A DNA stretch of 64,000 bases, taken from sequence record PZ386953.1; one strand, written 5' to 3'. The DNA comes from a phage. Both the position numbers and the translations under genes were made by a program. This document shows, piece after piece, positions 50,762 through 61,098 of this stretch. The stretch's first letter is position 1, and every line of letters starts with the position of its first letter. Below the pieces are notes generated by a model. It saw only the letters and a program-made list of their open reading frames with translations. It searched no databases and was not told where the DNA came from.

Positions 50762-51036
50762 GGGGATTTCTAAAATGGATTTCCTCCTTTTGATATTTCA
50801 CCGGGCTGGATATTTTAAAATTCTTAGAAAATCAGAAAATGGATCGAAAACTAAAATGTATTTTTCAGAGTAGGCGCGACAAGCTGAATAACTCATCCTA
50901 TCGTTTGCACCATATTCCAGGCCACCATTATAGATTTTCCCACACATGCTCACATCCTTCTACCAGAACTTTCCCACTCGCCCTTGGCCTTTTATGGCAA
51001 TAATCCAGCCACTATCTTGAAGTTGCGGTACAGCTT

Positions 51037-51128
51037 TCCAAGTACTCGATCTGTTTTTCGTTTCAAAGATTGAATTTTCTGAAAATTTTTCTCGATAAAT
51101 TTCCAAGTACTCGATCTGTTTTTCGTTT
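51037..51128 (+). repeat. iteron-like direct repeats
   Basis: TTCCAAGTACTCGATCTGTTTTTCGTTT at 51037-51064 and 51101-51128; partial third copy TCGATTTTTCGTTTT at 51189. Confidence 0.7.
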
Positions 51129-51332
51129 TCTGAATCGGATTTTCTGGAAATCGTTCCAGCTCTCTACCTGAAATTTTTGGGGACGAAATCGATTTTTCGT
51201 TTTCAGAAATGGATTTTTAAAATTTCTATATGGGAATATTTTATGGGATACTGTTTTATAGGAAATTGTTACGGAGGGTAATTAGCATGCTAATTAAATT
51301 TATTAAATGCGAGGAGTTCTCATTTAGAATTT

Positions 51333-51967: not shown

Positions 51968-52165
51968 ATGAACGCATACGGGATCAAAGTACGTCGCAAC
52001 ACTCGCCAGGTGGTCACCGATCAAATGGTTTGCCAGGTGGACGTAACCATCAACAACGGGCAAGGCCTTTATAAATTCCGTCGCGGTCAGAGCTATACCC
52101 GGCAACAGCTTAATCGTTGCGCCCTGACAAAAGGACAGATCAACCACTGGTTTAATAAAAAATAA
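51968..52165 (+). CDS. small basic early protein (66 aa)
   Basis: ATG after AAGAGGATAAAATC leader; promoter 51890-51918 (tool start 51890 is the -35 TTG). Confidence 0.5.
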   Translation: MNAYGIKVRRNTRQVVTDQMVCQVDVTINNGQGLYKFRRGQSYTRQQLNRCALTKGQINHWFNKK

Positions 52166-52168
52166 GTA

Positions 52169-52197
52169 TTGACATATAGTCCGACACCAAATACACT
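52169..52197 (+). promoter_or_regulatory. sigma70-like early promoter
   Basis: TTGACA-17 bp-TACACT. Confidence 0.45.
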
Positions 52198-52229
52198 AAA
52201 AGCACAAAAGACACTAAGAGGATAAAATC

Positions 52230-52628
52230 ATGAAAACCACCACCTTTAATTTTGATAATGCGGACTTTTCTTTTTCTGATGTCAAGAACTGCCGCCGTGA
52301 TCGTGGATTTTACAAGGCTTATAATCTGGTGGGCCTGGACGATGACAATAATTTGCACGAAGTAGCTGAGATCCGGTATTATGCCGCCGCCAGCGGGAAC
52401 ACTCACTACTGCGTGTTTTGGATTCACGACAACAAGAACAATAAGTACGGTTATACTGGCGGCAAGGCGAGCGGTCACGGTTACGATAAAGCTAACGCAG
52501 CACTTGAGAGCGCATTAAATGCTATGGGGATCACTGCCGACGGCTGGATCTACGAAGAAGAGTTTTTGTCGGCACTTGCTGACCACCTGGGCTATAAAAA
52601 ACACATTGTAACATGCGCCCACGAATAA
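52230..52628 (+). CDS. hypothetical early protein
   Basis: 132 aa; identical AAGAGGATAAAATCATG leader; promoter 52169-52197. Confidence 0.5.
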   Translation: MKTTTFNFDNADFSFSDVKNCRRDRGFYKAYNLVGLDDDNNLHEVAEIRYYAAASGNTHYCVFWIHDNKNNKYGYTGGKASGHGYDKANAALESALNAMGITADGWIYEEEFLSALADHLGYKKHIVTCAHE

Positions 52629-52710
52629 AAATCATTGACACGCTGCAAAATTTAAGTAAACTAGACACAAAAGGCGGGAATGTTTCCCGCCAGCACAAAG
52701 GAAAAAGATC

Positions 52711-53106
52711 ATGAATAAGAACGTACGCCGCATCATGAACGAACTGGCAAACGATGAAAAAATTATTGATATGCATTTGGTCAACATTTGCCGCCGTTGT
52801 GTAACATATAACAACCGCGCCGCAAAAGCGCGTGAGATGAACGCAAAAGGCACCTTAAAGCCCTTTCAGGTGGTTGTAAAATCTATAACTAGCGCAGCAG
52901 GCCAGGCGCAGGACCACAACAACGAGAGCGCTAATATTGATCCGTCTTACGTAATGAAACGGATCCGGACTTGCAAGAATAAAGAGCAGGTATATAACGT
53001 CATAGATTGGCTGGACTCCCTGGGCGATGTGGTTTACAATAGGTTTTCTGCAGCTATCGAGATCCAGCTTGACAGATTGGACGGGAAAGTACTAAAAACT
53101 TATTGA
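52711..53106 (+). CDS. hypothetical early protein
   Basis: 131 aa; promoter 52635-52662, leader hairpin 52673-52691. Confidence 0.5.
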   Translation: MNKNVRRIMNELANDEKIIDMHLVNICRRCVTYNNRAAKAREMNAKGTLKPFQVVVKSITSAAGQAQDHNNESANIDPSYVMKRIRTCKNKEQVYNVIDWLDSLGDVVYNRFSAAIEIQLDRLDGKVLKTY

Positions 53107-53108
53107 GT

Positions 53109-53154
53109 TTATTTTTAGATGGCCTTGACACCAGGGCCATCAATAAAGTAAACT
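53109..53154 (+). promoter_or_regulatory. 46-bp palindromic promoter box, copy 1
   Basis: TTATTTTTAGATGGCCTTGACACCAGGGCCATCAATAAAGTAAACT; 7-bp inverted repeat GATGGCC/GGCCATC brackets the -35 TTGACA. Confidence 0.55.
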
Positions 53155-53186
53155 AACCACAGTTGAGCGGAAAAGGAGGCTTAAAG

Positions 53187-53306
53187 ATGAGCACTACACG
53201 CCAGCACACAAAGGTAACCATCATCGTTTGCATCATTGGGTACATCCTGGCGCAAATGTTGATGGGTAGCGCCAACGGTGTCGCAAAATTTTTCTTAAAC
53301 TTTTAA
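53187..53306 (+). CDS. small hydrophobic peptide (39 aa)
   Basis: ATG 6 nt after AAGGAGG, downstream of promoter box 53109-53154; one hydrophobic helix. Confidence 0.35.
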   Translation: MSTTRQHTKVTIIVCIIGYILAQMLMGSANGVAKFFLNF

Positions 53307-53334
53307 TTGACAAGCTAACTTAAATCGATATAAT
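53307..53334 (+). promoter_or_regulatory. consensus sigma70-like early promoter
   Basis: TTGACA-16 bp-TATAAT. Confidence 0.55.
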
Positions 53335-53385
53335 AAGCACATAAACGGGAAAACTTCCCAGAACACACAAAAGGAGAAAAACACC

Positions 53386-53727
53386 ATGACTACTATGACC
53401 GCCTCAGAAAAAGCTATGCAGATCGCTGAACTGAAAAAACAGATCGCAGACCTTGAGAATAAGATCGATAACTTTGAAATCGACGAGGACAAGTACGACG
53501 AAAACTATGATGAATGGTTAGACGAGATCTACGGCGAAATTATGATCGGAAACATTTCTTTTCTTCCGTCGCGTATCCTCAAGGAGCTAGATCCTATCGC
53601 TTACCGCTGCGGATTTAGCGACTACATCGACAGCCTGGATATTGAGAACGATGAAGAATACCAGGAATTACAGACAGAGTTAGAAGAAGCAAAAGAAGAG
53701 CTTGCGGAGCTGGAAGAAAACGAGTAA
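53386..53727 (+). CDS. highly acidic coiled-coil early protein
   Basis: 113 aa, D/E-rich, ends EELAELEENE; consensus promoter 53307-53334. Confidence 0.5.
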   Translation: MTTMTASEKAMQIAELKKQIADLENKIDNFEIDEDKYDENYDEWLDEIYGEIMIGNISFLPSRILKELDPIAYRCGFSDYIDSLDIENDEEYQELQTELEEAKEELAELEENE

Positions 53728-53729
53728 GC

Positions 53730-53775
53730 TTATTTTTAGATGGCCTTGACACCAGGGCCATCAATAAAGTAAACT
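53730..53775 (+). promoter_or_regulatory. 46-bp palindromic promoter box, copy 2
   Basis: Identical 46-mer to copy 1, immediately after a stop codon. Confidence 0.55.
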
Positions 53776-53816
53776 TTATACTGTTAACACTGAACGAATG
53801 CATAGGAGTTAAAACC

Positions 53817-54062
53817 ATGGCAGCACTAATCACCAAATATTATGCCCCTACCAATACCAAAAGCGCCCGTATCATGGTAAAAGGCTTCGGACGTAAAAAG
53901 GTGTACACCTGGGATTATGCCTTAGACACGGAAGACAACTACACCAACGCAATGACCGATTTTATTAATGAACTAAATAAGCAGATCTTGACAAGTTATA
54001 AAGTGACCGATATTGCTTATATAGGTGAAGGCGGGATCTGTTTTGTAGGCATTGTGAAATAG
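53817..54062 (+). CDS. hypothetical early protein
   Basis: 81 aa; ATAGGAGTTAAAACCATGGC leader repeated at 58407; promoter box upstream. Confidence 0.45.
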   Translation: MAALITKYYAPTNTKSARIMVKGFGRKKVYTWDYALDTEDNYTNAMTDFINELNKQILTSYKVTDIAYIGEGGICFVGIVK

Positions 54063-54110
54063 TTATTTTTTCGGTGGTCCTGGTTGCAGGGCCATCTATA
54101 AAGATAATTT
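54062..54110 (+). promoter_or_regulatory. diverged promoter box, copy 4
   Basis: TTATTTTTTCGGTGGTCCTGGTTGCAGGGCCATCTATAAAG: same layout, degenerate arms. Confidence 0.3.
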
Positions 54111-54136
54111 ATTAACACCATGAAAGGAGAAAGTAC

Positions 54137-54490
54137 ATGATCAGCGGGGCAAGTTTTATTATTGGCGCTATTGCTACGGCTTTAATTGTAAATAAGATCC
54201 AGGATAAAAAGGAAAGAGGAAGTACCGCCCTTGCAGAATATCCATTTTGGGCATTCAACGATAACGAAGATTATATTATAAAGTATAAAAATAAAGAAGG
54301 TGACCAAGTAACACCGCGACCGATCCCGGCTTACAAAATGCAGGAAACACTATACCGCCTGAAGGCGGGGGGCGCAAAAATTGTAGACTTTTGGGGATAC
54401 GACCACACAGATCAGGAAGTTATAAAGCGCCGTATCCGGGCTATTCAGGCCAATATTGAAGTTAGCAAGGGGGGAATATATGAAAATTAA
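54137..54490 (+). CDS. membrane-anchored early protein
   Basis: 117 aa, N-terminal hydrophobic helix; GAAAGGAGA RBS. Confidence 0.45.
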   Translation: MISGASFIIGAIATALIVNKIQDKKERGSTALAEYPFWAFNDNEDYIIKYKNKEGDQVTPRPIPAYKMQETLYRLKAGGAKIVDFWGYDHTDQEVIKRRIRAIQANIEVSKGGIYEN

Positions 54491-54677
54491 TTTCGAGAAA
54501 ATTGTAAAGCGCCCTCATGATTCCGAAGAGCTGCCAGAACGCCGCCAGCGTAACAATAAACTGAATAAGCCAAAAAGGTTTGGGAAGATCTGGCGTAATC
54601 ATTATGATCGTAAATTGCCCGGCCTACTTTTGGAACGTGAACGACAGGCAGAACGATACCGCCATAAAGACAAATAA
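54480..54677 (+). CDS. small basic protein (65 aa)
   Basis: ATG after AAGGGGGG, overlaps upstream stop; terminator follows. Confidence 0.35.
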   Translation: MKINFEKIVKRPHDSEELPERRQRNNKLNKPKRFGKIWRNHYDRKLPGLLLERERQAERYRHKDK

Positions 54678-54685
54678 CAACCAAC

Positions 54686-54715
54686 TCCCCGCCATTGTGC
54701 GGGGCTTTTTATTTC
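54686..54715 (+). terminator. intrinsic terminator
   Basis: CCCCGC-CATTGT-GCGGGG then CTTTTTATTTC. Confidence 0.65.
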
Positions 54716-54836
54716 TATCCTACGAATAGCGCCCCTGGTTGGCCCTGTAAGCGCCAAAAAGGCCCCCACCTATGCAATCGCCCCCCTTTAACCTGAAAAC
54801 ATCGCCCATGGCCGTTTCATGGCGTTAAAAATATCA

Positions 54837-54864
54837 TTGACATCGTCAACAGGTTAGCTATACT
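54837..54864 (+). promoter_or_regulatory. sigma70-like early promoter
   Basis: TTGACA-16 bp-TATACT. Confidence 0.5.
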
Positions 54865-54896
54865 AACCACATCAAAGAGAGAAAGGAGTAAACGCC

Positions 54897-55157
54897 ATGC
54901 GTAAATTAAAAAATTTTGATAAAGTTGATGTTATCCTGAATAATTTTTACTACTGCAACAACAAGGCTATTTGGTGGCGTGATAGTTCCACCGATAAAGT
55001 TAAGGCGCGCTTTCTTCAAGGGCACTGGCAAGGCCGCCCAGTGATTAAAATCATGGGGCAATTGGTAGCTTTCAAAAATTGCCGCCGTGCTGATGATATC
55101 GAAGATATCTTGAACGTTTTACGCTACAACAATTTTAAAAATAGTGTTGACAAGTAA
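54897..55157 (+). CDS. hypothetical early protein
   Basis: 86 aa; promoter 54837-54864; GAAAGGAG RBS. Confidence 0.45.
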   Translation: MRKLKNFDKVDVILNNFYYCNNKAIWWRDSSTDKVKARFLQGHWQGRPVIKIMGQLVAFKNCRRADDIEDILNVLRYNNFKNSVDK

Positions 55158-55174
55158 GATTAAACAAGTATACT
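55147..55174 (+). promoter_or_regulatory. sigma70-like early promoter
   Basis: TTGACA-16 bp-TATACT, overlaps upstream stop codon. Confidence 0.5.
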
Positions 55175-55231
55175 TAATCACATAGGCGGGAAAAATTCCC
55201 GCCACCGCCGAAGAAAATAGGAGAAAATATC

Positions 55232-55855
55232 ATGACTACCGTTAACATTACCGCAGGTTACAATTTATCTTTCGACGTGCTGACCGACGAACAAAAAGAA
55301 AAAGCCGTTGAAATGGTCCGCGAAAGAGAGGAAAACAGCGGTGATAACTTTTTCGCAGAAAGCGTAATTGAATACTATAAAGAATATGTTTTTCCAGAGT
55401 ATGGCCTTGAAGATACCGAAGTACATTGGTCAGGCTTTTGGTGCCAGGGTGACGGCGCGTCAATCAGTGCTGAAAACGTGGATTTAGAAAAATTTTTGCG
55501 TAAAGTAAAGGCCCTGACCAAGTTCCGATCAATTCGTCACTTGTTCGGCACAATGCACGATGGCGAGTTATCAGCCAGTGTTGAACGCGACAAGTACAGC
55601 CATTACAGCCATGAAAACACTGTAAGCGGGTACATTGATACCACTTGGCTAGATCTGACCGCCAAACAAGAAAACAAAGTGGAAGACCTGGAAGAACTGA
55701 TCACCGAGACGGTACGGGAGCTATCCCGCAAGGTTTACGTAGACCTGGAGGAGGCCTATCTAGAACAGTTCACCGCAGAAAACCTGATCGGCCTTATCGA
55801 GGCCAATAACTGGCGGTTTGATGTCGATGAATATGGTGAGATGACTTTTTCATAA
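55232..55855 (+). CDS. acidic early protein
   Basis: 207 aa, net acidic; promoter 55147-55174 and leader hairpin 55185-55203. Confidence 0.5.
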   Translation: MTTVNITAGYNLSFDVLTDEQKEKAVEMVREREENSGDNFFAESVIEYYKEYVFPEYGLEDTEVHWSGFWCQGDGASISAENVDLEKFLRKVKALTKFRSIRHLFGTMHDGELSASVERDKYSHYSHENTVSGYIDTTWLDLTAKQENKVEDLEELITETVRELSRKVYVDLEEAYLEQFTAENLIGLIEANNWRFDVDEYGEMTFS

Positions 55856-55863
55856 ATAAAGTG

Positions 55864-55891
55864 TTGCAATAACCTAAAAACCTGCTATATT
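55864..55891 (+). promoter_or_regulatory. sigma70-like early promoter
   Basis: TTGCAA-16 bp-TATATT. Confidence 0.45.
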
Positions 55892-55945
55892 AAAACTCAA
55901 GGGGGCAAGACGTTTGCCCCAACACAAAACAAAGAGGATAACATC

Positions 55946-56326
55946 ATGAAAAACACTACCAAGGCTATTGACACCGTTATGTTTAACCTGGTTACATTCC
56001 GTGAAGATATGAAAGATCTTCCTCGTGAAACAGTGTGCGACCATATCGAAAACTATCGCAAACTAATCAAAGAGTTGCCTTTAAAACGTGATCAATATGC
56101 GGCTAACGCCATGCTTAATGCCATGATCAAAAAGATGATCCAGTGTGATTTAACCCTGGCCTATGATTATGCAGGCGGTCGTTTTGCAGTATACAATCAG
56201 CCCGTGCCCGGTATGAGCACCACCGAAGAATTGCACGCGCTCAATCTAAAACAAGACGTGTGGGATAGTATGCCTCGCGTGGTGGTATGGGTAGAAAGCG
56301 GAAAGATTTACGGCGATAATTTTTAA
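55946..56326 (+). CDS. hypothetical early protein
   Basis: 126 aa; promoter 55864-55891, leader hairpin, AAAGAGGATAACATCATG. Confidence 0.45.
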   Translation: MKNTTKAIDTVMFNLVTFREDMKDLPRETVCDHIENYRKLIKELPLKRDQYAANAMLNAMIKKMIQCDLTLAYDYAGGRFAVYNQPVPGMSTTEELHALNLKQDVWDSMPRVVVWVESGKIYGDNF

Positions 56327-56390
56327 TCAGGTAGCAGGCGGCATATTTGCCGCCTTATTGTTAATCAGAACTGTAAAAGAGGTACATAGA

Positions 56391-56762
56391 ATGGAATTTA
56401 TTATTTTGGCTGTATTGGTTGCCTTGTTTAACGCCTGGATCGCTGGCAAGATGGGAAGATCCGCCTTTTTATGGTTTATTATATCTATTTTCCTGGGGGT
56501 GGTTGCAACTATTGTATTGGTTATCCTTGCAATTGTTGACAAGGGGAATAATAGAAAGGGTAAAGTATTTTCAGACCTGTACGACGCTCAAACGTTTGTC
56601 AACGCCTATTATAGTGATCTTCCAGTCTCCCTACGCTGCAGCCTGGCACAACAGGTTTTTGATGAGGCTAAAACCAGAGATCAAGCCCATGAGATATGTT
56701 TAACTGAGGCGGATCGCCTATTTGAGAGGAATAGAAAATATGTGGGCCAACCGTTTAAATAA
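56391..56762 (+). CDS. membrane protein
   Basis: ATG after AAAGAGG; two predicted TM helices. Confidence 0.45.
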   Translation: MEFIILAVLVALFNAWIAGKMGRSAFLWFIISIFLGVVATIVLVILAIVDKGNNRKGKVFSDLYDAQTFVNAYYSDLPVSLRCSLAQQVFDEAKTRDQAHEICLTEADRLFERNRKYVGQPFK

Positions 56763-56985
56763 TGCCACGTTAATTAATCCCTTTAGTGAAGATTTGAAGC
56801 CAGCCGCCTGGCGTGACGGATTCAATAACGAACGCTTTATTTTCAGGCCTGATCTTGAGGAATTTTATAACAATGGATCGAACAACAGCGGAGATAATTT
56901 TTCTTGTGGTGTGCGTGGTGATGGTACTCCTGGGGGCCATTGTAAACCACGTCACTACTACCAGAAGGAAAGGGGGAGACGATGA
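56740..56985 (+). CDS. hypothetical protein (frame uncertain)
   Basis: ATG after GAGAGGA; TGA overlaps next start (ATGA); an alternative 41-aa TM peptide ORF exists in another frame (56873..56998). Confidence 0.3.
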   Translation: MWANRLNNATLINPFSEDLKPAAWRDGFNNERFIFRPDLEEFYNNGSNNSGDNFSCGVRGDGTPGGHCKPRHYYQKERGRR

Positions 56986-57101
56986 CAACCAAGGATAAGC
57001 CATGTACCGATAAGGTGCGCCGCGTTATGGTATGGCTTGAGATTATCGCCCTTGAAATATTGCTAGGCGTAGGGATGTACTTTATCGCTGTAAGTAACTA
57101 A
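56982..57101 (+). CDS. small membrane peptide (39 aa)
   Basis: ATG 6 nt after AAGGGGGAG; one TM helix; terminator follows. Confidence 0.35.
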   Translation: MTTKDKPCTDKVRRVMVWLEIIALEILLGVGMYFIAVSN

Positions 57102-57104
57102 GAA

Positions 57105-57134
57105 CGGCCCCCGATCATGGGGGCCTATCTTTTA
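57105..57134 (+). terminator. intrinsic terminator
   Basis: GGCCCCC-GATCAT-GGGGGCC then TATCTTTT. Confidence 0.6.
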
Positions 57135-57240
57135 AAAAAATTTTTCTTCCGTGGTGTTGCAATCCGATCCGGAATGTGGATAATAACAATCAACGGGGAG
57201 CTAATCCCCACCACCACAAAAACCAGAAAGGAGAAACAAA

Positions 57241-57441
57241 ATGAGCAACAATATCCGCGTTATTAACTTCAAAAAAGAAGAAAAAATTGCCGTGCTGATT
57301 GACGGTCAAGAAATCTTCAAGGGCGACTATGAAGATCATCAAACGGCGATTAGTATCACTCGCGTGATTGGTTACCATAATTTCTACCCCCAAGGCGCTG
57401 AGGCAGCAGTTAAACGAATCAAAGAGATTGTAGGCCTGTAA
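57241..57441 (+). CDS. hypothetical early protein
   Basis: 66 aa; promoter 57157-57186; GAAAGGAGA RBS. Confidence 0.45.
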   Translation: MSNNIRVINFKKEEKIAVLIDGQEIFKGDYEDHQTAISITRVIGYHNFYPQGAEAAVKRIKEIVGL

Positions 57442-57444
57442 AAT

Positions 57445-57490
57445 TTATTTTTAGATGGCCTTGACTTCAGGGCCATCAATAAAGTAAATT
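57445..57490 (+). promoter_or_regulatory. 46-bp palindromic promoter box, copy 3
   Basis: Same box with 3 substitutions (TTGACT, TAAATT). Confidence 0.5.
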
Positions 57491-57532
57491 TAAACCCTGT
57501 TAAAATAATCAGTGCAAAAAGGAGTAATGGTC

Positions 57533-57832
57533 ATGTTTATACCCGCCAATAATCTTTATTTCTTTGATGGTCAGATCGTAGACGGTGTGGAAGTGGAGAT
57601 CACTGGGTGCCCTGGTGGTCAGGCTATGACTTTTCGGAATAATGCCTTTGATGATTCTCGTATCGTTATGAGAATGGAAGTTACAAAGCTGGACGACAAG
57701 AAAACACTCATTGACTATTCCGTGAAAGATCATCCAGACCACCACATGATCTATGGTGATTTGTGCATTGTTGACCGTGACAAGGTGAGCGGCATTGTGA
57801 TCGCTATTGTGAACGATGTTTTCTCAAACTAA
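57533..57832 (+). CDS. hypothetical early protein
   Basis: ATG 8 nt after AAGGAG (tool GTG start is 21 nt upstream); promoter box 57445-57490. Confidence 0.45.
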   Translation: MFIPANNLYFFDGQIVDGVEVEITGCPGGQAMTFRNNAFDDSRIVMRMEVTKLDDKKTLIDYSVKDHPDHHMIYGDLCIVDRDKVSGIVIAIVNDVFSN

Positions 57833-57849
57833 TTTCAGCAGGTGATTTT

Positions 57850-58200
57850 ATGAAAGTTAAATTATATTACCTCAATGAGCTTAACCCGCTTGCACAAGTC
57901 CACGCCCTGGATAACGCTGTTTATTGTGAAAAGTCTATATACAGTGTTGAGCTTAACGCTATGCGTGAACGCCTTAAAGGCGGTTACTTTGACATCCATG
58001 CTGCAATCAACGGCCTGAATATAGAATTTATCCGCTTACGTAACAGCCGCCAGAATCTGGCAAGAATGGAACAAGATCCGGCCCACCTTCGTAAGCTGGT
58101 TATTGAAAATCATCTGATGTTTAATGCCGATGGTGATTATTACCATTTTCACCGTAAACGCTGGTACCGTAGCGGCAATATAGGAAAGAATGCAAAATAA
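57850..58200 (+). CDS. hypothetical early protein
   Basis: 116 aa; terminator follows. Confidence 0.45.
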   Translation: MKVKLYYLNELNPLAQVHALDNAVYCEKSIYSVELNAMRERLKGGYFDIHAAINGLNIEFIRLRNSRQNLARMEQDPAHLRKLVIENHLMFNADGDYYHFHRKRWYRSGNIGKNAK

Positions 58201-58236
58201 GGCCCCTGGCAGGGCCTGCAGCGATATAATCACATA

Positions 58237-58270
58237 AAGGCTATGCGGTTGCATAGCCTTTATTATTTTG
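58237..58270 (+). terminator. intrinsic terminator
   Basis: AGGCTATGC-GGTT-GCATAGCCT then TTATTATTTT. Confidence 0.65.
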
Positions 58271-58406
58271 GCGTTACAGCGGCCCCCAAGGCGCTTAAAA
58301 AATTTTTAAAGAAGTACTTGCATCAAGTCCTACAATATGGATAATAAAGGGTGTCGGGGGGCGGTGAGGCCTCCAATCATTAACCGGATAGATAGGAGTT
58401 AAAACC

Positions 58407-58691
58407 ATGGCTATTGTTACCGTTGGCGATGTAGTAGAAATGGAAGCCAAATACTTAAAAGCTGGTATGCATATCATACGGAATGATCAAGAATTGTTAT
58501 TAACCATGGTTGAATATAATCCCGGTCAGGATTATCCAAGCATTGACTACTTTTTCCAGTATGTTGATGAAGAATTAAAAGAGGATGAGGCTTATCAGGG
58601 TGAATTTTGTAATTTCTTTTGCTCTGATGAGGTTGTAAAAGTTATCTATCAACCTGGCGTACCTTTCCCGCTGCACGCTATCAATAAATAA
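58407..58691 (+). CDS. hypothetical early protein
   Basis: 94 aa; promoter-like 58318-58346; repeated leader ATAGGAGTTAAAACCATGGC. Confidence 0.45.
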   Translation: MAIVTVGDVVEMEAKYLKAGMHIIRNDQELLLTMVEYNPGQDYPSIDYFFQYVDEELKEDEAYQGEFCNFFCSDEVVKVIYQPGVPFPLHAINK

Positions 58692-58747
58692 ACCTGGCGG
58701 GGCCGAAAAGGCCCCCCAATTATGAAAATAAAGAGAGGCAAATCATC

Positions 58748-58981
58748 ATGATGGAACAAATTAAACGCGCCGAGGCTATTAATGGCAACGTGATCTATTT
58801 TGTCAGCAAAAACGAAAAAGGCGTACCCTATGCGGCGGTAATAGTACAGCCTGACGGCGATTATTGGTGCACTGTGTACGGCGCTTATTCTTTTGGGCGT
58901 CCGGTGCATGATAAAATTTTGAAAGTAGCGAACCCTACCGGGAAAAATATTACAGCAGAAAAATTTTTTGAAAATAGTTGA
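58748..58981 (+). CDS. hypothetical early protein
   Basis: 77-aa ORF after hairpin 58699-58715. Confidence 0.4.
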   Translation: MMEQIKRAEAINGNVIYFVSKNEKGVPYAAVIVQPDGDYWCTVYGAYSFGRPVHDKILKVANPTGKNITAEKFFENS

Positions 58982-59005
58982 CATGACTATATAAAACTGT
59001 AGTAT
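58978..59005 (+). promoter_or_regulatory. sigma70-like early promoter
   Basis: TTGACA-16 bp-TAGTAT. Confidence 0.45.
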
Positions 59006-59057
59006 ATAAATCAAAGGGGGCAACAAGCCCCACCAACCACAAAGAGGATAAAAAATC

Positions 59058-59237
59058 ATGGCTATTATTGCAAAGACCGAGATCGTAGGCTTAGATTCTA
59101 TTCTCCTCGCATATGAGGAAGCTATAGAAATGTATGTGGTTTCCTATGGTGAGTATATCCGTGAATATGAATCTATTGATCTAGCTTTTGAATGTTATAT
59201 TCGCCAGGTTAATAAAGCGTACGATGATTATCGTTAA
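59058..59237 (+). CDS. small protein (59 aa)
   Basis: ATG after AAAGAGGATAAAAAATC; promoter 58978-59005; below tool cutoff. Confidence 0.4.
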   Translation: MAIIAKTEIVGLDSILLAYEEAIEMYVVSYGEYIREYESIDLAFECYIRQVNKAYDDYR

Positions 59238-59328
59238 AATAGTTTGACAACAAACAACCATCTAACAAAGCATAATACATAAGGTGGTAGAATGATCCGC
59301 CACCCGGAACAAAGAAGAGGTAAACACC

Positions 59329-59574
59329 ATGAAAAGCAATAAAGGTTATAACGGTTACAAAAACAAAACTCATTGGAATGTAAGCCTTTGGATTAATAAC
59401 GATGAGTCATTGTACCGGTTGGCCCAAGGATTTATTAACGCTAATGCTAATCGTAATGATGCGGCGCGGGATATGATGCTTTTTCTGGAGCTAACCGGAC
59501 AAGATAAGACCCCGGACGGCTTCAAGTACAGCACTACGGCGATCCGTGCCGCGATGGTTGGAATGAAACACTAA
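59329..59574 (+). CDS. hypothetical early protein
   Basis: 81 aa; AAGAAGAGG RBS. Confidence 0.45.
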   Translation: MKSNKGYNGYKNKTHWNVSLWINNDESLYRLAQGFINANANRNDAARDMMLFLELTGQDKTPDGFKYSTTAIRAAMVGMKH

Positions 59575-59651
59575 AAGCACATAGCCGCCTTACCCTGGGG
59601 CTGTAGTAGCGGCCCCATGAATAAGGTTACTAACAGAAGAGAATAAACACT

Positions 59652-59756
59652 ATGAAACAGAAATTAATCGATGCAGTGATCTTGGTTATTGCCCTGGGTA
59701 TTGGCCTGATTGCAACCATGTCTAATATGATCTTGTCTTCCAACGGTATCGGGTGA
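59652..59756 (+). CDS. small membrane peptide (34 aa)
   Basis: Single hydrophobic helix; weak RBS; below tool cutoff. Confidence 0.25.
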   Translation: MKQKLIDAVILVIALGIGLIATMSNMILSSNGIG

Positions 59757-59765
59757 GGTTGGCAA

Positions 59766-59981
59766 ATGATCACTAACAAAACAGGCAAAACAGAATTTTT
59801 ACGCAACTTACAGATCGGCAAGCCTGAGATCTGGTACTGCACTAAAACACCGCGTGACGAAATGAAAGACTTCACCGCCACGCTGCAACGGGTAAAGATA
59901 TCTATCACGCAGAAAAAGGCCTTACTAGTGGTGGAAGGGGAGATCCCCCAAACCGTTGTTATAGTTGAGCGTACAGCATAG
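59766..59981 (+). CDS. hypothetical protein
   Basis: 71-aa ORF. Confidence 0.4.
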   Translation: MITNKTGKTEFLRNLQIGKPEIWYCTKTPRDEMKDFTATLQRVKISITQKKALLVVEGEIPQTVVIVERTA

Positions 59982-60072
59982 TTTAATTTATACCGATACC
60001 CGAAAATTAACCAACAAAGCATAAACAGGCGGTTACCGCCGCCTTAAACGTAGCAGAAAGAGGATAGACACA

Positions 60073-60363
60073 ATGAAAAAGATGATCGCAGTGGTTGCCC
60101 TGGTTGTTGGACTTAGTGCGCCTGCAATGGCTAATGAGCTGGCAAAAGAGGTTAATCTAACGGATATTCATGCCGTCAATCGAATCGGGGTTACTTATCG
60201 CTTATGCCTTGCCACTAAAACTTTTAATGACGGTACAACAGAGTACTACGGGTTTGAGGGTATCCGGTGCGGTGAGCTTGCTCGCGACCTTAAGGAAGAT
60301 CCAGACCTGGAAGATCTGCCCATCACCGTAAACGGTAAAGCTTACGTAAACCGCCAACAATAA
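60073..60363 (+). CDS. secreted/periplasmic small protein
   Basis: Signal peptide MKKMIAVVALVVGLSAPAMA; AAAGAGGAT leader. Confidence 0.45.
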   Translation: MKKMIAVVALVVGLSAPAMANELAKEVNLTDIHAVNRIGVTYRLCLATKTFNDGTTEYYGFEGIRCGELARDLKEDPDLEDLPITVNGKAYVNRQQ

Positions 60364-60379
60364 GTAAGGGAGATGTAAA

Positions 60380-60571
60380 ATGAATACTGAACAAGTTAGA
60401 AAGGTATTGGCGGTACTGCGTTATCATAATCATAGAAAGGTCATAGACGATCCTGATTATGTAGATTCAAGCCTGGAAGAAGACACGCTACAAGCTATCA
60501 GCCATATGCAAGAATTGCTTAAGCGCATGACAGAGAAAAACCGACCGGACTACATAGGGGGTAAAATATGA
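60380..60571 (+). CDS. hypothetical protein
   Basis: 63 aa; AAGGGAG RBS. Confidence 0.4.
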   Translation: MNTEQVRKVLAVLRYHNHRKVIDDPDYVDSSLEEDTLQAISHMQELLKRMTEKNRPDYIGGKI

Positions 60572-60879
60572 TCGCTATTACGCCAACCGTTTTAGATTGG
60601 TATCGGCAACGCATAGCTCCTCCGCTGGCTATCTTCAAAGATGCGGAATCAAAACAACGCCGGATCTCAATACATGAGATCATCAACCTTAACGCTGGAG
60701 GCACACCATACCGCCCAGGGCCTGGCCGTGAGATGGACAATACGTTAGCGATCCTGAAGATACGCCGTAAACGGTCCTCCCTTACGCTGGACTCCTTACA
60801 CACAATGCAGTCTCCGTTCCAGGTGACCGGGAAACGGATCGCCAGGTCCTGGACAAAGGCCAATGATCGGACCGTATAA
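60568..60879 (+). CDS. hypothetical basic protein
   Basis: 103 aa; ATGA overlap. Confidence 0.4.
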   Translation: MIAITPTVLDWYRQRIAPPLAIFKDAESKQRRISIHEIINLNAGGTPYRPGPGREMDNTLAILKIRRKRSSLTLDSLHTMQSPFQVTGKRIARSWTKANDRTV

Positions 60880-60967
60880 ATAAAAAGTGCTTTGGTACTG
60901 ATTTTGGGGGTTGACTTGTTCGGCCCCTTTTGCTATTCTTATTAAACGGGCGGCACTTGGGAACAGG

Positions 60968-60990
60968 GGGAGACAATCACCGGGCCTGCC
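60968..60990 (-). repeat. 23-bp GC-rich element, copy C (inverted)
   Basis: GGGAGACAATCACCGGGCCTGCC is the exact reverse complement of copy A. Confidence 0.75.
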
Positions 60991-61098
60991 TGTCATATAA
61001 GAACTATAAAAACCGTTGACATCTGCCAGGTGGTGGGGTAACATTTATCTTGAAGGGGCAAAAGTGCCCACACAACAACCAGAAGAGAGGAAAACATT

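Follow-up and report, generated by a model that had tools for sequence, protein, structure and literature searches.

A compact run of overlapping small genes in an rV5-like Vequintavirus, with a probable missed membrane-peptide gene in an alternative frame

Genes and signals at the locus

The window, a 64,000-nt stretch of DNA from sequence record PZ386953.1, belongs to a Vequintavirus, an rV5-like myovirus of E. coli. Its stretch 55900–58300 matched 121 phage records at ∼90–96% identity, with 115 of the 121 aligned over at least 80% of the length. The corresponding region of rV5 has been described as containing 88 mainly small ORFs with sigma-70-type promoters annotated within it, and 15 rV5 proteins carry predicted transmembrane (TM) domains (PMC3606486). 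All of the ORFs flagged in an earlier note on this DNA are on the plus strand (Table 1). Between the two hairpins at 56336 and 57106, four ORFs overlap in series: ORF183 and ORF182 share 23 nt, ORF182 and the alternative-frame ORF ∼113 nt, and the alternative-frame ORF and ORF181 17 nt, with the frames running 0 > 1 > 2 > 0. The positions given in the earlier note were all correct (ATG 56740 to TGA 56983–56985, 81 aa; 56982–57101, 39 aa; 56873–56998, 41 aa), and the TGA of ORF182 shares an ATGA with ATG 56982, as read directly in the sequence.

Table 1. Positions of the ORFs, signals and homopolymer runs discussed in the text (window coordinates).
Feature	Position	Strand	Frame	Remarks
rV5 ORF193 homologue, 39-aa single-helix peptide	53187..53306	+		Very strong Shine-Dalgarno (SD); phrog_16391
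Terminator-like hairpin, weak T tract	56336..56355	+		5' of the putative operon; terminator in the Murica and HdK5 annotation
ORF183 homologue, 123 aa	56391..56762	+	0	First cistron
rV5 ORF182 homologue, 81 aa	56740..56985	+	1	Only ∼56740–56872 behaves as constrained coding sequence
GAGGA, SD-like element	56857..56861	+		11 nt 5' of the alternative-frame ATG
Alternative-frame ORF, 41-aa predicted single-pass membrane peptide	56873..56998	+	2	+1 relative to ORF182
T5 run	56898..56902	+		Site of natural T5>T4 deletion; reads UUU_U in the ORF182 frame
G5 run	56932..56936	+		Site of natural G5>G4 deletion
Strong SD AAGGGGGAG of the 39-aa ORF	56970..56978	+		Within the KGGD codons of the alternative-frame peptide
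rV5 ORF181 homologue, 39-aa predicted single-pass membrane peptide	56982..57101	+	0	
Strong intrinsic terminator: 8-bp hairpin with 7 GC, and a T tract	57106..57125	+		Closes the putative operon; terminator in the Murica and HdK5 annotation
34-aa single-helix peptide	59652..59756	+		Annotated in ime, Murica and A51.2; phrog_14631

The first cistron, ORF183, encodes a protein with two predicted TM helices, both N-terminal. It was matched by tblastn only in 119 Vequintavirus records, at 96% amino acid identity or more, and falls in family phrog_13090; its omega of ∼0.07 served as the positive control for coding selection. The 'putative holin' label that this protein carries in the BASEL records was found to be unsupported, with no significant match in Pfam, NCBIfam or a named PHROG and no linkage to the lysin.

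ORF181, at the other end of the series, is 100% identical to rV5 ABI79246 and occupies the same position between ORF182 and the terminator. Its N-terminus is basic, its helix (VWLEIIALEILLGVGMYFIAV) is invariant and contains two Glu, and its relatives are all 39–40 aa long and at least 73% identical. The strong ribosome-binding site reported in the earlier note was borne out: AAGGGGGAG lies ∼5 nt upstream of ATG 56982, its duplex with the anti-SD sequence (−10.7 kcal/mol) is in the top 1.6% of the 386 ATGs scored, and the value is −10.7 kcal/mol or better in every sequence aligned.

Two peptides outside this cluster, at 53187 and 59652, would each add an independent member to this class of small membrane peptides in phages. 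The 53187 peptide has an SD of −11.6 kcal/mol and an omega of ∼0.31 (p = 3e-4), and its ORF lies immediately downstream of a promoter/stem-loop cassette. The 59652 peptide, from a protein cluster of 26 members, exists as two alleles that are 53% identical, each of exactly 34 codons with a hydrophobic N-terminal half, and both share the C-terminal motif VATM[AS]NMILSS[NH]GIG. One hydrophobic helix was found in each of these two peptides and in each of the 41-aa and 39-aa peptides, as the earlier note had described them.

That note had also called the peptides unannotated, which holds for only one of the five ORFs. The rV5 record (DQ832317) annotates ORF182 (56740..56985), ORF181 (the 39-aa ORF) and ORF193 (53187..53306), and the 34-aa ORF at 59652..59756 appears in the annotation of ime, Murica and A51.2 (as 'putative membrane protein' in A51.2). 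All four proteins have accessions in public protein collections and belong to PHROG families whose function is unassigned: 12060 (ORF182), 13629 (ORF181), 16391 (53187 peptide) and 14631 (59652 peptide). The ORF181 protein matched its family over residues 1–39 of 39 (E = 2.1e-32), and the 53187 and 59652 peptides matched theirs from end to end (E = 1.8e-31 and 8.1e-23). The ORF182 protein matched residues 1–73 of a 73-residue profile (E = 6.3e-52), which leaves the C-terminal 8 residues of the window's protein outside; the window has the long 81-aa form, which differs from rV5 ORF182 in its tail. These four are direct orthologues of rV5/PHROG Vequintavirus hypothetical proteins.

The alternative-frame 41-aa peptide, MDRTTAEIIFLVVCVVMVLLGAIVNHVTTTRRKGGDDDNQG, had no match in PHROGs or Pfam, and no GenBank record inspected annotates it. 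Five sequence variants of its 41-aa form were absent from a collection of 15 billion proteins, and it was present in two JGI gene calls only (P0059 and P0060), there as a 60-aa ORF begun at an upstream ATG that is missing in most genomes. It is the sole new point among the ORFs named; the others are ordinary, already catalogued, genus-specific phage genes.

Searched by tblastn with each piece in turn, a set of 50,697 phage records gave matches only in ∼119–121 records, all Vequintavirus. ORF183, ORF182, the alternative-frame peptide and ORF181 were found in Vequintavirus alone, to which the 53187 and 59652 peptides are likewise confined, and only the upstream ORF184 reaches other genera. Two extra loci came from a scan of IMG/VR and three from a metagenome scan. 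No match with known function was obtained for these ORFs in Pfam, NCBIfam or PHROGs. Judged by sequence comparison, the flagged micro-ORFs are more than chance ORFs and are to be taken as real genes.

Selection in the overlapping frames

Selection was measured on 47 homologous sequences (42 unique) from GenBank, IMG/VR, ENA and Logan, aligned to the window. Since recombination inflates tree-based counts (514 parsimony events), each variant was counted once and compared with a neutral simulation that preserved the observed transition/transversion ratio. ORF181 was under coding selection in its own frame, with 21 synonymous variants over 57002–57098 against 11.2 expected (P = 0.0005), as was the N-terminal part of ORF182 in the ORF182 frame, with 19 against 11.8 over 56763–56872 (P = 0.014). 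Counts in the remaining frames of these two regions were at or below expectation. Replacements in the ORF182 N-part were conservative, and both indels found in it (−3 and +3 nt) keep the frame.

Downstream of the alternative ATG the pattern changes frame. Over 56876–56958 the alternative frame had 20 synonymous variants against 12.2 ± 3.0 expected (P = 0.009), a signal that is moderate (P ∼0.01–0.02 before correction for three frames) and comes from recombining lineages of one genus at 87–98% nucleotide identity; earlier subsets of the sequences pointed in the same direction. Over the same positions the ORF182 frame had 9 synonymous variants against 12.3 expected (P = 0.90). The character of the replacements follows the same division. 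Those in the alternative frame (V>A, V>I, M>V, I>M, T>A) are of a conservative kind, and nonpolar-to-polar changes number 1 where 4.8 were expected (P = 0.047). Those in the ORF182 frame, among them C>W, C>R, R>C and G>D, are radical; here 10 nonpolar-to-polar changes were seen where 5.3 were expected, and the cysteines are not conserved. Within the TM core of the alternative-frame peptide, hydrophobic-to-polar changes numbered 0 of 13 against 3.4 expected (P = 0.027), and the synonymous excess of the core by itself was not significant (P = 0.14). From the alternative ATG to the T5 run there were already 6 synonymous variants against 2.8 expected (P = 0.035).

Residues 8–24 of the peptide (IIFLVVCVVMVLLGAIV) have a 17-residue mean Kyte-Doolittle hydropathy of 3.45. 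At least 80% of its 41 aa was covered by tblastn in 119 phage records, and every full-length relative retains both the ATG and the TAA of the ORF, apart from the homopolymer-deletion variants discussed below and the UNVERIFIED record D1. The GAGGA upstream of its ATG has a duplex energy of −6.2 kcal/mol, similar to the ORF182 (−6.0) and ORF184 (−5.8) starts, and it is missing from only 2 of the 43 sequences tallied; GAAGA replaces it in one lineage. Conservation of residues 33–41 is not independent evidence, because this segment overlaps the SD and start of ORF181. By these measures, the selection supporting the alternative-frame peptide is comparable to that of the ORF182 N-part, which every pipeline annotates.

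In the ORF182 protein the highest 17-residue hydropathy is −0.19, and an AlphaFold2 model built with 9 homologues was uninformative, with a mean pLDDT of 49 and a pTM of 0.16. The ORF182 stop codon varies: 25 of the 42 unique sequences have 81 codons and 17 have 73, the short form ending at a TAA 8 codons (∼20 nt) upstream of the ATGA. The ATGA overlap with ORF181 is therefore found in only ∼60% of sequences and, given that ORF181 has its own strong SD everywhere, ATGA coupling is not a conserved feature. Translational coupling, as proposed in the earlier note, thus keeps its plausibility from the tight overlaps and the single terminator at the end, but loses the ATGA junction as a conserved element.

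It could be argued that only the annotated frames are genes, such that ORF182 encodes a protein of 73 or 81 aa with a fast-evolving and probably disordered Gly/Cys/Arg-rich tail, and the alternative ORF is an untranslated by-product. All of the GenBank annotation inspected calls the ORF182 frame and none the alternative one, the 41-aa ORF is destroyed in some natural variants, and codon usage fits the ORF182 frame equally well. Indeed, a codon-usage frame score was decisive everywhere but in the overlap, where the log-likelihoods were −110.0 and −111.2. To this extent the earlier note was right that the translated frame is undecidable from a single sequence; the comparative data, however, favor the alternative frame. 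The ORF182 frame is also open in all sequences, but this openness is automatic: the third codon positions of the tail coincide with second positions of the helix codons, which are rich in T and so bar stops. In simulation the chance of acquiring no new stop was ∼0.6 in both frames, and openness therefore carries no weight. Restricting the genes to the annotated frames would also have to accommodate a tail with no sign of purifying selection in either the synonymous or the nonpolar-to-polar counts, with unconserved cysteines and with a stop that shifts by 8 codons, and it leaves the synonymous excess and the kept hydrophobicity of the alternative frame unexplained. We regard it as a real but clearly less probable explanation.

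Another explanation would be that what is conserved here is an RNA structure or a regulatory element, such as a hairpin that controls ORF181 translation, rather than a second coding frame. The window sequence does fold as a long hairpin at ∼56900–56967 (z = −2.45 for a 161-nt fold), but the consensus fold of 22 variants was weak (−7.2 kcal/mol) and compensatory changes were seen in 0 of 20 pairs. A three-base periodic synonymous excess is not expected from RNA structure, and Rfam gave no family match in 52000–61000. As the single-sequence hairpin is not conserved and shows no covariation, this explanation was rejected, and we consider it very improbable.

On these comparisons, the alternative frame, and not the overlapping annotated tail of ORF182, is probably the frame conserved by evolution, and the 41-aa peptide is probably a gene missed in more than 100 published genomes. 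The ORF182 tail, as judged from the same counts, evolves neutrally, and its annotation gets no support from selection. The ORF182 annotation in >100 Vequintavirus genomes, several of them from candidates for therapy or biocontrol, would thus probably mis-describe the C-terminal third of the protein and omit a membrane-peptide gene. The locus also illustrates cleanly why coding should not be read from a long open frame that lies over a helix-coding one: a T at the second codon position bars stops in the −1-shifted frame, and gene callers would systematically choose the wrong frame there. None of these results overturns existing knowledge.

Natural variants and fusions of the two frames

With an artificial query that joined the ORF182 N-part to the alternative-frame peptide, we matched real proteins of 85 aa. 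Two of these (P0047 and P0048) result from a T5>T4 deletion at 56898–56902, with the frame switch at 'DNF|L', which fuses the ORF182 N-part to the TM helix; two others (P0049 and P0050) result from a G5>G4 deletion at 56932–56936, with the switch at 'TPG|AIV'. In T4 genomes the peptide begun at the alternative ATG is cut after 15 residues and the helix is available only as a fusion. In G4 genomes the alternative-frame peptide ends after 23 residues, and the fusions are without the helix. The deletions occur in four genetic backgrounds (T4 in two) with the neighboring genes intact, and P0047 was found on 7 contigs from several samples; at least T4 therefore looks like a real circulating genotype. 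Among the 119 Vequintavirus GenBank records, apparently none carries the T4 or G4 deletion, as judged by tblastn cover of at least 80% where such a break would leave ≤∼76%. A 33-nt in-frame deletion that removes the alternative ATG was seen on one short contig. Given these three kinds of natural variant, the 41-aa ORF is dispensable in some phages.

The fusions raise the question of whether the functional product is the ORF182 N-domain joined to the helix, made by +1 frameshifting at UUU_U or by mutational switches at the T5 and G5 runs. The natural in-frame fusions are of exactly this type, and a minority of RF2 genes use UUU_U as their +1 shift site (PMC5009743). UUU_U occurs twice in the ORF182 frame, at 56863–56866, 1 nt after the SD-like GAGGA, and at 56899–56902 in the T5 run, and constraint passes from the ORF182 frame to the alternative frame near the first of these sites. 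The resemblance to RF2 (prfB) thus comprises a shift-prone UUU_U, an SD-like element upstream and a conserved +1 frame downstream. Unlike in RF2, however, the shift site lacks an in-frame stop, the A-site codons being ordinary sense codons (UAU and UCU) that are neither slow nor stops; the SD-like element is spaced 1 or 5 nt away instead of 3 nt; and the +1 ORF keeps its own ATG and SD. Selection in the alternative frame is already present upstream of the T5 run, and a shift at that run therefore cannot be the main route. Nor are the fusions positive evidence for linkage, because an open overlap will by default turn any −1 deletion into a fusion ORF, and both the helix-less G4 fusions and the apparent lack of fusion deletions in the GenBank records speak against it. 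A functional fusion product accordingly seems unlikely to us, and we would give equally little credence to the broader proposal that the ORF182 N-domain and the alternative-frame helix are halves of one unit, linked by UUU_U frameshifting or by reversible T5/G5 changes. Were they so linked, the phage population would carry soluble and membrane-anchored forms of one small early protein.

Proposed operon and relation to known systems

We lean, on the basis of the sequence features and per-frame selection above, towards reading the locus as a compact four-cistron operon (ORF183, ORF182, the missed 41-aa peptide and ORF181) with a closing terminator. One mRNA, ending at the terminator at 57106–57125, would yield four translation products. 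The first would be the two-helix membrane protein of ORF183, and the second the ORF182 protein, with a functional part limited to its first ∼45 residues. The 41-aa membrane peptide would be initiated at ATG 56873 through its own GAGGA, in the +1 frame over the annotated C-terminus of ORF182, and the 39-aa single-pass peptide of ORF181 would be made from its own strong ribosome-binding site. Ribosomes staying in the ORF182 frame would traverse the unconstrained tail and stop either 20 nt before the ORF181 start or on it; termination there could aid initiation of ORF181 but would not be required for it.

Out-of-frame overlapped or embedded genes are well known in phages, including lambda Rz1 in Rz, T7 18.7 in 18.5 and P2 lysC in lysB. 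The ORF182/alternative-frame pair resembles these in that the smaller gene lies +1 relative to the larger one, over its 3' part, has start signals of its own and encodes a putatively membrane-targeted product. It differs in that the alternative-frame peptide has no lipoprotein signal or lipobox and its partner, ORF182, has no TM domain. When compared with the lipobox pattern [LVI][ASTVI][GAS]C, the peptide reads FLVVC, FLAMC, FLGMC or FLVMC, with V or M at position −1; its n-region (MDRTTAE) is acidic, and the Cys is followed by 10 hydrophobic residues. A two-component spanin was rejected on the lack of a lipobox and of a TM domain in ORF182 and on the location away from the lysis genes; the +1 overlap is a shared feature. 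Single-gene lysis peptides embedded in other genes, such as phiX174 E in D and MS2 L, are likewise short, single-helix peptides in the alternative frame of a longer gene. Those examples, however, belong to tiny ssDNA or ssRNA phages without an endolysin, whereas the phage studied here is a 137-kb myovirus with a conventional lysozyme, and no sequence similarity was found between them and the 41-aa peptide. In rV5 the lysin is gp89 and the proposed holin gp129, both encoded far from ORF181–183, and the text and supplements of the rV5 paper make no mention of gp181, gp182, gp183 or gp193 (PMC3606486).

In size, single helix and charged flanks the peptides resemble regulatory or toxic inner-membrane peptides of <50 aa from bacteria and phages, such as type I toxins and the small membrane proteins of T4, and several such genes are scattered through this small-ORF block. 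For a type I toxin-like role, no antisense RNA partner and no match in Rfam, Pfam or NCBIfam was found. Small accessory peptides acting early on targets in the host inner membrane are our guess as to function, a working one prompted by size, hydrophobicity and genomic context. The five short membrane peptides now defined in the small-ORF region of this well-used phage group, which includes the BASEL phages Bas48–59, could be tested for toxicity, exclusion or host-target binding. We infer for the alternative-frame peptide both translation and insertion into the membrane. By the positive-inside rule its C-terminus would be inside, with RRK following the helix, and the N-terminus of ORF181 would be inside by virtue of its basic N-terminal segment; the two peptides would thus insert in opposite orientations.

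Repeated stem-loop and promoter cassette

A 49-nt intergenic cassette is present in four copies in the window, sharing 71–100% identity, with the gene for the 39-aa homologue of rV5 ORF193 (53187) lying directly downstream of the first copy. The cassette hairpin (GATGGCC...GGCCATC) carries a TTGACA -35 box within its loop, and TAAACT is found 18 nt downstream; the cassette is a stem-loop and a promoter in one. In this it is reminiscent of promoter-stem-loop modules that have been described in T4-type phages. A separate direct repeat was also located in the window.

Window coordinates of repeats and of the genes and ORFs discussed
Feature	Position	Remarks
Direct repeat (TTTCCAAGTACTCGATCTGTTTTTCGTTT...), ~47–57 nt	51032-51217	three copies, 65–74 nt apart
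49-nt cassette	53106-53154	intergenic
49-nt cassette	53727-53775	intergenic
49-nt cassette	54061-54109	intergenic
49-nt cassette	57442-57490	intergenic
ORF183 homologue	56391-56762	
49-aa ORF	57117-57266	
34-aa peptide gene	59652-59756	

Variation and conservation among small genes

Two sharply distinct alleles of the 34-aa peptide gene, MKQKLIDAVILV... and MLEKIFTVVVVG..., were observed across the window and five related sequences (L001, L004, L007, L008 and L010). The alleles are 53% identical, have the same length and share a conserved C-terminal motif; the gene content beside them varies among genomes. The homologue of rV5 ORF183 is extremely conserved (omega ∼0.07; at least 96% amino acid identity across 119 genomes) and is distant from the lysin. 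BASEL-collection records name this protein a “putative holin”, and other records a “membrane protein”; no holin-family match was obtained for it.

A natural 33-nt in-frame deletion, equivalent to approximately window positions 56869-56901, was identified in L046, an ENA scaffold of 1691 bp. This deletion removes 11 codons of the ORF182 homologue together with the ATG of the overlapping +1 frame, and brings the GAGGA element of that frame closer to an in-frame ATG internal to its helix, with a spacing of 13 nt.

Annotation and host labels

The 49-aa ORF is probably spurious. Its start lies within the terminator hairpin, it overlaps the start of a well-supported 66-aa gene at 57241, and it is annotated in a minority of records, among them A51.2 (153-nt CDS) and rV5_ev158 (called as 49 aa).

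Seventeen GenBank “Campylobacter phage” records (MG0656xx; e.g. L016 and L040), with C. jejuni as the stated host, are Vequintavirus genomes, and several are flagged UNVERIFIED. Over the stretch compared, these records are ∼92–96% identical to the E. coli phage of the window, and their host label looks doubtful. In one such record (D1), the G run ahead of the start of the 39-aa ORF181 homologue is altered by a 1-nt indel.
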